From Thermoanaerobaculia bacterium (GTDB lineage Bacteria; Acidobacteriota; Thermoanaerobaculia; UBA5066; Gp7-AA6): a stretch of 64,000 bases of DNA. A program made the translations under genes and the position numbers. Of the stretch, positions 27,952 to 31,354 are shown piece after piece. A model generated the notes under the pieces. It ran no database searches and had not been told where the DNA came from. It saw nothing but the letters and a program-made list of their open reading frames with translations. Position 1 is the first letter of the stretch. Each line of letters begins with the position of its first letter. The DNA is taken from positions 45,614 to 109,613 of the forward strand of contig JAYRMU010000032.1 in the NCBI GenBank assembly GCA_041912555.1. Reading direction: 5' to 3'.

Positions 27952-29353
27952 CGGCGCCCGCGCGCTCCCGGGAGAGCCACTCGCGGAACTCCGGGTCGGC
28001 GCGCAGGGCCGCGAAGTCGGGATCCTCGTCGAGGAGGTCGAACCGGCGGAAGCCCTTCTCGACGGCGCGCGTCAGGTGCTTGCGCGCGCGCCGCGGCTGG
28101 CCGGCGCGGGCCTCGGCGCTGGCGAGGTCGTAGTCCACCAGCGGGTCGTCCGGATCGATCTGCGCCGCGACCTCGAGGGCGAGCCGGGCGCGGGCCCAGT
28201 CCTTCTTCGCGAGGAAGTCCTCGGGCAGGTAGAAGCGCGTCTGCGCGCGCAGGTTGGCGAGGAGACGCTCGGCCGAGAGGCGCTCGGCGGGCGACCCGGC
28301 GGCCGCGCGCCGCTTGAGCGCCGGCACGCCGAGCTCCGCGGAGACCTCGGCGGCCGGGCGGAGCTCGGGCTCCCGCAGCGCGGCATGGAGCTTCTGCGCG
28401 AGGACGCGCAGCGTCCCCCGGTCGCGGTCGTCGCGGAGGGACGCCTCCCGCAGGGTAGCGCGGACGGACGCCGACGCGGCGAGGGCCGCGGCCTTCTCCG
28501 CCGCCGGGCCGACGTCGGCGAGACCGCGAAAATCCTCCGCGGCGTTCGCGTAGGCGACGGAGGCGTCGGCCGGCGCGCCCGCGGCCTCGAGCGCGGCCGC
28601 TCGGGCGATCTCGGAGGCGAGGAGGTCCGCGGCGAGCGCCTCGTCCCGGGCGCGGGCGCCGGACTTCATCGCCTCGAGCTCCATCCACGCGACCGCGCGG
28701 GACGCGACCGCCGGCGGGGGCCAGTCGTGGCCCCCCTCGAAGTACGCGATCCGGTGCGCGACGTTCGCGGCGGACAGGTCCGCGTCGAGGGCGCGCATCT
28801 CGTAGTAGTTGAAGTCCCGGTCGCCGACCGTGCCGAAGTAGCGGAAGGGCAGGCCCGCCAGCGGCATCTTCTCGTCGGGCAGCCCCGCGCCGCAGCCGAT
28901 GACGCCGGCGATCGCCTTCGGGGCGCGGGCGGCCAGGGCGACGGCGGCGCGGGCGCCGCCCGAGAACCCGGCGAGGGTGACGCGCCGCGGGTCGATCGCG
29001 AGGAGGGCGTGGGTGTCGTTCCACATCGCCTGGAGCGCGGGCGTGTTCGGGTCGTCCCGCGTGTCGCTGCGCGAGTTCCAGGACGACGCGAGGATCCAGC
29101 CGTACGTCTCGGCGGCGGCGCGGAAGCGTTCGAGGGCGGCCAGCGCCCGGCCCCGCGCGTCGAGGATGTAGAGGATCGGCCGCGGCCGGTCCGGTGCGTA
29201 GGCCGGGGGCAGGTATTCGGCGTACGCCTGTTCGGGCTTCTCGCGGCAGACGATCCGTTCGACGACGCGGCCGCCGGCCGGCTCCGCGGCGCAGGCCGCG
29301 GCCGCCGCGAAGAAGACGAGGAGGCCCGCGCGAAGCCGTCTAGAGGGACGCAA
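27926..29353 (-). CDS. Secreted esterase-like alpha/beta hydrolase with C-terminal TPR
   Basis: Signal peptide; GFSGG elbow; GGHDW; YDLA...A TPR and DPDF..LR tail; TTG start overlaps gap stop. Confidence 0.75.
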   Translation of the reverse strand: MRPSRRLRAGLLVFFAAAAACAAEPAGGRVVERIVCREKPEQAYAEYLPPAYAPDRPRPILYILDARGRALAALERFRAAAETYGWILASSWNSRSDTRDDPNTPALQAMWNDTHALLAIDPRRVTLAGFSGGARAAVALAARAPKAIAGVIGCGAGLPDEKMPLAGLPFRYFGTVGDRDFNYYEMRALDADLSAANVAHRIAYFEGGHDWPPPAVASRAVAWMELEAMKSGARARDEALAADLLASEIARAAALEAAGAPADASVAYANAAEDFRGLADVGPAAEKAAALAASASVRATLREASLRDDRDRGTLRVLAQKLHAALREPELRPAAEVSAELGVPALKRRAAAGSPAERLSAERLLANLRAQTRFYLPEDFLAKKDWARARLALEVAAQIDPDDPLVDYDLASAEARAGQPRRARKHLTRAVEKGFRRFDLLDEDPDFAALRADPEFREWLSRERAGAATPGSSPP

Positions 29354-30344
29354 GCCGGTCGACGAGGTCCACGACCCGGTTCGAGTAGCCCCACTCGTTG
29401 TCGTACCAGGCGAGAACCTTCAGGTAGCCGTCCCCCGCGGCCTGCGTCGAGAGCGCGTCGAAGATGGAGGAGCGCGGGTTGCCGATGATGTCGGACGAGA
29501 CGAGGGGAACCTCGCTGTACTCGACGATCCGCGCGAGCGGGCCCTCGGCGGCGGCGCGGACCGCCGCGTTGACCTCGGCGGCCGACACGGGGCGGGCCAT
29601 CCGGCAGGTCAGGTCCACGATCGAGCCGTCGGGGACCGGGACGCGGATCGCCATGCCGTCGAGGCGGCCCTTGAGGCGGGGCAGGACCTTGCCGACCGCC
29701 TTCGCGGCGCCCGTCGTCGTCGGGATGATGTTCTCCGCGGCCGCGCGGCTGCGGCGCAGGTCCTTGTGCGGCACGTCGGCGAGGCGCTGGTCGTTCGTGT
29801 AGGCGTGCACCGTCGTCATGAAGCCCTCCTCGATGCCGAAGCTCTCGTCGAGGATCTTCGCGATCGGCGCGAGGCAGTTGGTCGTGCACGAGGCGTTCGA
29901 CACGATGCGGTGCGAGGGCAGGAGGGACGCGTCGTTGACGCCCATGACGATGGTGGCGTCGATCTCGTCCTTGGCCGGGACCGTCAGGATGACCCGGCGC
30001 GCGCCGGCGGCCAGGTGCTTTTCGAGCGGCTCCCGCGTCAGGAGCCGGCCGGTCGCCTCGACGACGACGTCCACGCCGTGGCGGCCCCACGGGATCCGGG
30101 CCGGGTCCCTCTCCGCGGTCATGGCGACGCGGCGGCCCGCCACGGTCATGCTCTCGGCGTCGGTCGTCACATCCTTGGGGAAGACGCGCATGACGGTGTC
30201 GTACTTGAGCAGGTAGGCCAGGTGATCGTTGTCGAAGAGGTCGTTGACGATCGAGACCTCGATGTCCGGCCGGTCCGAGAGGATGCGGAAGACGCTCCGG
30301 CCGATGCGGCCGAACCCGTTGATGCCGACGCGCACCGGCTTCAT
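29340..30344 (-). CDS. gap: Type I glyceraldehyde-3-phosphate dehydrogenase
   Basis: GINGFGRIG, SNASCTTNCLAP, VHAYTNDQ, PTTTGAA, RVP, WYDNEWGYS. Confidence 0.97.
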   Translation of the reverse strand: MKPVRVGINGFGRIGRSVFRILSDRPDIEVSIVNDLFDNDHLAYLLKYDTVMRVFPKDVTTDAESMTVAGRRVAMTAERDPARIPWGRHGVDVVVEATGRLLTREPLEKHLAAGARRVILTVPAKDEIDATIVMGVNDASLLPSHRIVSNASCTTNCLAPIAKILDESFGIEEGFMTTVHAYTNDQRLADVPHKDLRRSRAAAENIIPTTTGAAKAVGKVLPRLKGRLDGMAIRVPVPDGSIVDLTCRMARPVSAAEVNAAVRAAAEGPLARIVEYSEVPLVSSDIIGNPRSSIFDALSTQAAGDGYLKVLAWYDNEWGYSNRVVDLVDRLASL

Positions 30345-31354
30345 TTCGCCTCCAGCGCCGCGAAGCGCCCGACGAGGTCCACGGCGCGGTGGGCGTAGCC
30401 GTAGCCCGAGTCGAACCAGGACAGGGTCTTCGAGACGCGGTCGCCGAGCGTCATCGTGGCGAGAGAGTCGAACGTGGCCGAAAAGGCGGAGCGGGCGACG
30501 TCGGAGGAGACGATCGGCGCGTCCTCGTAGTCGAGGACCCGGCGCCAGCGCTCCGTGGCCGCGGCCGCGCGGAGCGCTTCGTTGATCGCCGCGGGGCTGA
30601 CGGGCTTCTCGTGCCAGGCGACCAGGTCCACGACCGAACCGTTCGAGACGGGCACGTTCATCGCGTAGCCGGTCAGCTTGCCGGCGAGCGCGGGCAGGAG
30701 GTCCGTCACCATCGCGGGCGAGCGCGACGCCTGCGGGATGATGTTCTCGGCCGCGGCGCGCCCGCGGCGCTTGTCCTCGGCGGGAACGTCCGCCAGGCGG
30801 TGGGCGCTCGTGTACGAGTGGATCGTCGTGAAGATCGCCCGCCGGATGCCGAACGCGGGCTCGAGGATCGCAAGCACCGGGGCGAGGCAGTGCACCGTCG
30901 AGGACGCGTTGGAGACCATGCGGTGGGCCGGGGAGATTGCCCCGTCGTTGACGCCCAGGACGACGGTGACGTCGGGCGGCTCGAGCGGGGGCGCGAGGAG
31001 GATGACCCGCTTGGCCCCGGCCGCCAGGTGCGCCTCGACTTCCGCCCGGGTGCGGCCCCGCGACGTCGCCTCGAGGACGGTGTGGACGCCGAGGTCGCCC
31101 CACCGGGGGACGGCCGGCTGGTCCTTGCCCGTGAGGAGAGGGACGCTGCGGCCCGCGACCCGCAGCCGTCCGTCCTCGATCGCCACCTCCTCGGAGAAGC
31201 GGCCGAGCAGGGTGTCGAACCGCAGGAGGTAAGCGAGGCCGGCCGGCTCGGCGAGGTCGCTGATCGCGCCGAGGCGGATGTCGTCCCGGTCGTAGAGGAG
31301 CCGGAAGAGGTTGCGGCCGATCCGCCCGAACCCGTAGATGCCGACCGTCGTCAC
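30341..31354 (-). CDS. GAPDH paralogue lacking catalytic residues (probable pseudoenzyme)
   Basis: Full length with GFGRIG, but SNASSTVHC (catalytic Cys to Ser), PQASRS, AMNVP, WFDSGYG. Confidence 0.85.
   Translation of the reverse strand: MTTVGIYGFGRIGRNLFRLLYDRDDIRLGAISDLAEPAGLAYLLRFDTLLGRFSEEVAIEDGRLRVAGRSVPLLTGKDQPAVPRWGDLGVHTVLEATSRGRTRAEVEAHLAAGAKRVILLAPPLEPPDVTVVLGVNDGAISPAHRMVSNASSTVHCLAPVLAILEPAFGIRRAIFTTIHSYTSAHRLADVPAEDKRRGRAAAENIIPQASRSPAMVTDLLPALAGKLTGYAMNVPVSNGSVVDLVAWHEKPVSPAAINEALRAAAATERWRRVLDYEDAPIVSSDVARSAFSATFDSLATMTLGDRVSKTLSWFDSGYGYAHRAVDLVGRFAALEAK

Follow-up and report, generated by a model that had tools for sequence, protein, structure and literature searches.

A degenerate GAPDH gene overlaps gap

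The DNA analysed here, referred to as the window, is a 64,000-nucleotide stretch from a Thermoanaerobaculia bacterium, an activated-sludge acidobacterium. Two adjacent genes on its minus strand encode proteins of the glyceraldehyde-3-phosphate dehydrogenase (GAPDH) family: gapX, which encodes a degenerate paralogue (protein X, P0001), and gap, which encodes the canonical copy (P0002; Gap, or G where copies are compared across genomes). The gapX gene (30341..31354, minus strand) is an intact open reading frame (ORF) with a GTG start and specifies a protein of 337 residues with both the Gp_dh_N and Gp_dh_C domains (PF00044 at 2.6e-23; PF02800 at 3.7e-42). The gap gene (29340..30344, minus strand) specifies a type I phosphorylating GAPDH of 334 residues. 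It scores 432.5 bits against TIGR01534, carries the same two domains, and has the SNASCTTNC, TTTGAA, AIRVP and WYDNEWG motifs all intact. By BLASTP, X and Gap share 48% identity over 331 residues and are co-linear to the last helix.

The gapX gene lies directly upstream of gap on the same strand, and the junction reads ...GGAGGCGAAATGAAG. An earlier note, made from the letters of the window, had described the paralogue as first in the operon with an ATGA overlap onto gap. This arrangement is confirmed: the ATG of gap (30344-30342) lies over the TGA of gapX (30343-30341), giving a four-nucleotide overlap at 30341..30344 on the minus strand. A Shine-Dalgarno-like GGAGG for gap (30349..30353, minus strand) is located in the final codons of gapX, at a distance of 4 nt from the ATG.

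Substitutions at the catalytic and phosphate sites of X

Residues such as Cys149 and Arg231 are given in conventional GAPDH numbering, and residues such as Ser152 and Asn233 in the numbering of X. Conservation was assessed in an orthologue set obtained by a search of 5.8 billion proteins, which returned more than 120 clusters at 69-88% identity; 120 of these were scored by residue. Those that carry names are from Thermoanaerobaculia (Acidobacteriota).

As compared to GAPDH, X carries Cys149 to Ser, Arg231 to Asn, Asn6 to Tyr, and Asn313-Glu314 to Ser-Gly. The phosphate (Pi) loop changes from TTTGAA to QASRSP, so that Thr208-Gly209 becomes Ser-Arg, and Asn180-Asp181-Gln182 (NDQ) becomes Ser-Ala-His (SAH). 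The catalytic cysteine position is occupied by Ser152, encoded by a TCG codon at 30899..30901 on the minus strand, as the earlier note had read it; serine is found here in 117/120 orthologues. The Cys-to-Ser change is thus conserved in relatives, and X also exists outside this genome. The Q208-A-S-R-S-P213 loop (30716..30733, minus strand) stands in place of the T-T-T-G-A-A loop and is a clade-specific motif. Within it, Ser210 and Arg211 are the equivalents of Thr208 and Gly209, and Ser210, Arg211 and Ser212 are each present in 120/120 orthologues. Ser183 and His185, from the altered NDQ segment, are each present in 119/120. By BLASTP alignment, Asn233 (30656..30658, minus strand; 107/120) occupies the position of the substrate-phosphate Arg231. 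The substitutions seen in the window protein are not due to chance, as they recur in 117-120 of 120 orthologues.

Other parts of the protein are retained. The Rossmann dinucleotide-binding motif G8-F-G-R-I-G13 (31316..31333, minus strand) has G8, G10 and G13 in 120/120 orthologues, and the acidic NAD residue Asp33 (31256-31258, minus strand) is Asp in 118/120. The active-site histidine, His176 (His179 in X), is present in 120/120. In conventional numbering, X retains GFGRIG, Asp32, Ser148, Thr150, His176, Thr179, Arg195, Arg197, and the entire S-loop, which spans X residues 181-207 (YTSAHRLADVPAEDKRRGRAAAENIIP; 30734..30814, minus strand) and is nearly identical to that of Gap. The earlier note had paired SNASSTVHC with SNASCTTNC, PQASRS with PTTTGA, AMNVP with AIRVP, SAH with NDQ, and WFDSGYG with WYDNEWG, and had listed as kept the full length, GFGRIG, the acidic NAD residue, the active-site histidine and RLADVP..D.RR.RAAAENIIP; each of these is borne out, the motif pairs in the BLASTP alignment.

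These changes are reflected in the family models. Against TIGR01534 (type I GAPDH), X scores 289.6 bits, below the cut-off of 367.2, whereas Gap lies above it. X also falls below the cut-off of all eight other GAPDH and Epd models in NCBIfam. X thus also misses the models of Epd, an erythrose-4-phosphate dehydrogenase (TIGR01532, 238.7 versus 530.55; NF010058, 236.1 versus 539). Epd and X have the same fold and each has an altered substrate site; Epd is an active enzyme with a catalytic cysteine, whereas X has none. Of the requirements of a type I GAPDH, X has His176, GxGxxG, Asp32 and the two-domain architecture, and is without Cys149, Arg231 and Thr208-Gly209. As X fails the defining features of both enzymes, it should not be filed as either GAPDH or Epd.

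The gapX-gap pair recurs across phyla

On four contigs (L001, L003, L004 and L005), X is followed by a GAPDH gene with a 4-nt overlap, and the other neighbours differ. The X proteins on these contigs are orthologues with 78%, 72% and 62% identity, together with a relative at 51%. A wider scan, in which each GTDB species was represented by a single genome, yielded 80 loci; with the earlier loci included, 74 X-to-G pairs could be defined. The spacer is -4 (ATGA or GTGA) or -1 (TAATG or TGATG) in 61/74 pairs, and a Shine-Dalgarno-like motif lies inside the 3' end of X, in its last codons, in 68/74. Where the scan matched canonical gap itself, a degenerate paralogue was again found immediately upstream. 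Five Bacillaceae loci hold a lone gap.

Judged from record titles, the pairs span at least 12 named phyla. In Acidobacteriota they occur in Thermoanaerobaculia, Holophagales and 'Multivoradales', and in Pseudomonadota in Cellvibrionales and Pseudomonadales, for example in Haliea and Mangrovimicrobium. They are also present in Thermodesulfobacteriota (Desulfobacterales), Actinomycetota (Acidimicrobiia), Bacteroidota, Planctomycetota, Bdellovibrionota, Lentisphaerota, Fidelibacterota, Latescibacterota, Eiseniibacteriota and Krumholzibacteriota. The overlapping pair is thus kept both in close relatives and across this wider range.

At L077 the contig begins at the lone gap gene, so that the upstream region is unreadable; at L052 the upstream paralogue ORF is too short for scoring; and five more loci have no scorable pair, their gap copy being frameshifted or cut by the contig end. 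Pairs separated by a true gap are rare: one Acidobacteriota genome (L010, 7077-7163) and one genome of Eisenbacteria (L042, 6999-7088) have gaps of 85 and 88 nt, respectively. At L004 (6011-7017), the gap gene downstream of P0123, an X protein with Pro in place of the catalytic Cys, is split into ORFs at 6011-6742 and 6703-7017, which is a frameshift or an assembly error of that contig.

Residues lost and retained across the X family

The residues important for GAPDH function were tallied in 73 X proteins and 77 canonical copies. Arg231 is present in none of the X proteins, where it is Asn in 66, and in 77/77 canonical copies. Gly209 is found in 0/73 versus 76/77, Glu314 in 0/73 versus 77/77, and Asn6 in 0/73 (Met in 53) versus 77/77. 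The family signature of X therefore comprises Arg231 to Asn (xNVP), loss of Gly209, Glu314 to Gly or Ser, and Asn6 to a hydrophobic or aromatic residue. The window protein bears this signature, with AMNVP, SRSP, WFDSGYG and GIYGFG. A second group of residues is largely retained in X: Ser148 (73/73), Arg197 (73/73), His176 (72/73), Thr150 (70/73), Thr179 (68/73) and Arg195 (61/73), each of which is present in all 77 canonical copies.

The position of the nucleophile behaves differently from either group. Among the X proteins it is Cys in 26, Ser in 20, Ala in 15, Asn in 4, Pro in 4, Val in 3 and Ile in 1; among canonical copies it is Cys in every G displayed in the alignment, a statement about the displayed copies and not a tally over all 77. 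Mapped onto the tree, the position has undergone at least 8 switches between Cys and other residues and 17 residue changes. The clade of the window protein, marked by SRSP, descends from Cys-bearing relatives that read SNASCTAHCA together with QETNAA, and inside this clade Ser152 has changed to Pro in L029 and P0123. Since a covalent mechanism cannot operate with Ala, Val, Pro or Ile as the nucleophile residue, thioester catalysis is dispensable for the role of X. This variability strengthens the pseudoenzyme reading of the earlier note beyond what could be seen in the window.

One branch departs from the family in its dinucleotide-binding motif. Eight X proteins from Bacteroidota (L048, L051, L056, L059, L061, L065, L079 and L083) read GFGEINR or GFGEIPR and have lost the third Gly of GxGxxG; the ATGA overlap with gap is still there, and in most of these eight loci the X gene ends at about 5998. 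Judging from the motif, NAD binding by this branch is doubtful.

X is an ancient family under purifying selection

In a maximum-likelihood tree of 73 X proteins, 72 G copies and five solitary GAPDHs, X forms one side of a branch with a Shimodaira-Hasegawa-like approximate likelihood-ratio test (SH-aLRT) support of 99, apart from G and the solitary GAPDHs. A second tree of 151 rows included 114 cluster representatives of canonical GAPDH. Here, all locus-derived X proteins group with 12 degenerate representatives in a clade of 31 tips (support 100), in which there are zero Arg231-bearing sequences. Both trees indicate that X is one ancient family of single origin.

The distances between proteins give information on the age of the duplication. 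X lies nearer to the G of its own pair than to the remaining G copies in only 33/71 cases, which excludes a recent duplication or gene conversion, and the pairwise distances of X and G correlate with r = 0.85. Together, these values indicate that the duplication is old and that X and G have been co-inherited since. X evolves approximately 1.5 times faster than G. Outside the X clade, the GAPDH-like representatives P0231, P0238, P0266 and P0267 are without Arg231, and three of them are also without Cys; they may be independent degenerate GAPDH lineages.

Pairwise ratios of nonsynonymous to synonymous substitution (dN/dS; Nei-Gojobori, NG86), calculated in the same ten genomes for both genes, range from 0.18 to 0.43 for X, as against 0.12-0.33 for G. 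With values well below 1, X is under purifying selection, and this is only a little more relaxed than the selection acting on the glycolytic Gap. On relatives and on dN/dS, the checks proposed in the earlier note thus favour its reading.

These data bear directly on the possibility that gapX is a duplicate in decay, on its way to becoming a pseudogene, or that the pair is an artefact of assembly or annotation. The faster evolution of X and its scores under every NCBIfam GAPDH cut-off are what such an explanation would have in its favour. The ORF is, however, intact in more than 120 orthologues, which have the same substitutions, and in 73 species representatives; the dN/dS values are low; the clade is ancient and monophyletic; and the same DNA was recovered in several independent activated-sludge runs. 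This conservation already refutes decay or artefact, which is left with a negligible probability, and the earlier note was correct to regard gapX as a maintained gene.

The S-loop is conserved and the phosphate site is diverged

Conservation is unevenly distributed along X. The S-loop, scored as residues 179-207, is the best-conserved part of the protein, with a mean conservation of 0.78 and a consensus shared with G at 83% of positions. The most diverged segment, residues 208-240, contains the Pi loop and the Arg231 position and matches the G consensus at 45%. In tetrameric GAPDH, the S-loop and the strands of the catalytic domain build the R and P subunit interfaces (PMC5119734).

An AlphaFold2 (AF2) model of the X monomer, computed from a 34-sequence alignment, has the GAPDH fold with a predicted local distance difference test (pLDDT) score of 81.2 and a predicted template-modelling score (pTM) of 0.83. 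By Foldseek, the model has a template-modelling (TM) score of 0.83 to the GAPDH of Geobacillus stearothermophilus, including its C149S mutant. The top matches of X in the PDB, by both Foldseek and sequence, are this GAPDH and two engineered mutants of it, C149S and C149A, and the best match by sequence is the engineered C149S mutant. The PDB contains no solved structure of a natural member of the X family. As compared to type I GAPDH (EC 1.2.1.12; TIGR01534; 1GD1, and the C149S mutant 1NQ5), X thus has the same domains, length and fold, and differs by its substitutions at the catalytic and phosphate sites, its score below the model cut-off, and its separate clade.

Two regions of the model have low confidence. 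Low confidence in the S-loop was considered as a sign that X needs a partner, and this was rejected because a control model of Gap is equally low there. The second region, X residues 276-297 (PIVSSD..S..S..FDS), is strongly conserved in sequence and yet has a pLDDT below 50; the equivalent segment is modelled confidently in the Gap control at equal alignment depth.

The retained fold and S-loop are informative for a role of X outside the mature Gap tetramer, in which X would be non-enzymatic and would serve as an assembly or folding helper, a decoy for oxidants or inhibitors, or a moonlighting factor that binds nucleic acid or protein. The dispensability of the catalytic residues, in a gene that purifying selection maintains and that always accompanies gap, would be in line with such a role. 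It would not require a full-length protein with a complete GAPDH fold and a Gap-like S-loop, which are what a tetramer subunit needs and go beyond the needs of a decoy or chaperone, and no extra domain or basic patch is seen in X. A role of this kind is accordingly considered improbable.

X as a probable non-catalytic partner of Gap

Taken together, the single origin of X, the purifying selection on it, the near-universal overlap with gap, and the loss of catalytic and phosphate-site residues with the interface loop kept suggest that X serves as a non-catalytic subunit, produced along with Gap and probably joining it in a heterotetramer. We assign this reading a probability of roughly 60%. The family-wide loss of Arg231, Gly209, Glu314 and Asn6, the variable nucleophile position and the purifying selection uphold the view of the earlier note that X is a pseudoenzyme; a physical complex of X with Gap, its stoichiometry (A2B2 in the earlier note) and any sensing role, such as the NAD(H)/redox sensor proposed there, are what we infer.

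In the proposed mechanism, gapX and gap would be translated from one mRNA by translational coupling. X would then enter a mixed tetramer with Gap, in which its role would be structural or regulatory, and the stoichiometry might be X2G2. In the clade of the window protein, the intact GxGxxG and Asp33 suggest that NAD(H) binding persists. One altered anion site could also survive, since the equivalents of Ser148, Thr150, Thr179 and Arg195 are kept and Arg211 is new, although this is speculative; the invariant Arg211 may replace Arg231 or plug the site that it vacated. If X binds NAD(H) or a phospho-metabolite, it would tune the activity, cooperativity or stability of Gap. An extended form of this proposal is that glycolytic GAPDH is an obligate heterotetramer of Gap and GapX, in which the GapX pocket senses NAD(H) or a phospho-metabolite to set Gap activity or cooperativity, across at least 12 phyla that include Acidobacteriota, Bacteroidota, Desulfobacterales, Acidimicrobiia, Planctomycetota and Halieaceae-type Gammaproteobacteria. 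This form is tentative and somewhat less probable than an even chance.

Several observations weigh against a non-catalytic subunit. Cys is kept in 26/73 X proteins and His176 in 72/73, and some members might still catalyse a reaction. The remodelled pocket (S152, H155, S183, H185, Q208, SRSP, N233 and S316) is conserved like the rest of X, which would fit a ligand site, possibly a new catalytic site. Translational coupling is also found between proteins that do not bind one another. In addition, a fusion of X to G was not found among the long multi-GAPDH representatives. Two candidates for such a fusion were rejected: P0126, a polyprotein of the order GAPDH-GAPDH-PGK-GAPDH-GAPDH whose units keep Cys, and P0207, which looks like a mis-called ORF.

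The pocket is also the point at which the main rival to the subunit reading arises, namely that X has neofunctionalised and works by itself, as an enzyme or a ligand-binding protein, with the pathway as its sole functional connection to gap. Here, the Ser152-His179 pair and a relocated arginine (Arg211 for Arg231) would handle a substrate different from glyceraldehyde-3-phosphate, for example by oxidising a hydroxyl or non-phosphorylated substrate, or by hydrolysing an acyl phosphate such as 1,3-bisphosphoglycerate. Within the clade, the changed pocket is indeed invariant (S210/R211/S212 in 120/120, S183/H185 in 119/120, S152 in 117/120). The Rossmann motif and Asp33 are intact, His176, Ser148, Thr150, Thr179 and mostly Arg195 are kept family-wide, and the loss of Arg231 with the gain of Arg211 resembles a re-positioned anion site.

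Other features weaken this reading. The proposed serine is replaced by proline within the SRSP clade itself, in L029 and P0123. Across the family, the nucleophile position takes C, S, A, N, P, V or I with repeated switches, a range incompatible with any shared covalent mechanism, and the eight Bacteroidota proteins are without the third Gly of the dinucleotide-binding motif. Moreover, a link through the pathway alone leaves the 4- or 1-nt overlap in 61/74 pairs and at least 12 phyla unexplained. A stand-alone function is therefore regarded as unlikely, although it keeps a real share of the probability, and a non-catalytic partner of Gap is the preferred reading.

Relation to known systems

Within the GAPDH family, the nearest system to the proposed X-Gap complex is the chloroplast GapA/GapB A2B2 enzyme (PDB 2PKQ, 7Q53), in which two GAPDH paralogues share one tetramer and one of them is regulatory; for X and Gap, a corresponding arrangement would be predicted by analogy. 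The differences are substantial. Both plant subunits are catalytic, regulation proceeds via the C-terminal extension of GapB and CP12, and the plant genes are not translationally coupled. Unlike GapB, X (337 residues) has no C-terminal extension and lacks the catalytic residues.

In function, X may most resemble the 'prozymes' and the GlgD-GlgC pair. The trypanosomatid prozymes of S-adenosylmethionine decarboxylase (AdoMetDC) and deoxyhypusine synthase are dead paralogues that hetero-oligomerise with the active enzyme, and GlgD of Firmicutes is a dead paralogue that partners GlgC and is encoded adjacent to it. X shares with these proteins a dead paralogue kept under selection and a proposed hetero-oligomer; the folds and pathways differ. 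What would be new here is a pseudoenzyme partner, a known principle, attached to a textbook glycolytic enzyme.

GAPDH is among the best-studied enzymes and is regarded as a homotetramer in bacteria. No description of a dead bacterial GAPDH paralogue was found by full-text searches of the literature or in a 2025 review of aldehyde dehydrogenase superfamilies, and NCBIfam holds no model for the X family. As the overlapping gene pair recurs in at least 12 phyla, GAPDH probably has an undescribed non-catalytic partner subunit. If this is true, glycolysis and gluconeogenesis would gain a new subunit and a regulatory layer at one of their central steps, in lineages that are abundant in the environment. 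Public records name X 'type I glyceraldehyde-3-phosphate dehydrogenase' or 'NAD-binding domain-containing protein', and metabolic reconstructions thereby include X as a second GAPDH, which it almost certainly is not. The X family can also be viewed as a natural experiment that separates the parts of GAPDH needed for assembly from those needed for catalysis.

Neighbouring genes and other observations

No sigma-70 promoter or intrinsic terminator was detected in 27700-31800, by a scan that is uninformative in a genome of 72% GC. On co-transcription of gapX and gap, the sole metatranscriptome from a matching sample yielded just conserved snippets of 38-48 nt, which come from other organisms.

The polyprotein P0126, a 50%-identity representative of 2089 residues, has a signal-peptide-like N-terminus and the catalytic Cys in all four GAPDH units. 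One possibility is that two glycolytic enzymes are combined here in a secreted or polyprotein form.

In the window, gap is followed by a gene at 27926-29353 (minus strand) for a 475-residue protein with a signal-peptide-like N-terminus and weak C-terminal TPR matches. Its start overlaps the stop region of gap by 14 nt, and it may be the third gene of the gapX-gap transcript. The synteny is absent in L003 and is kept in L001.

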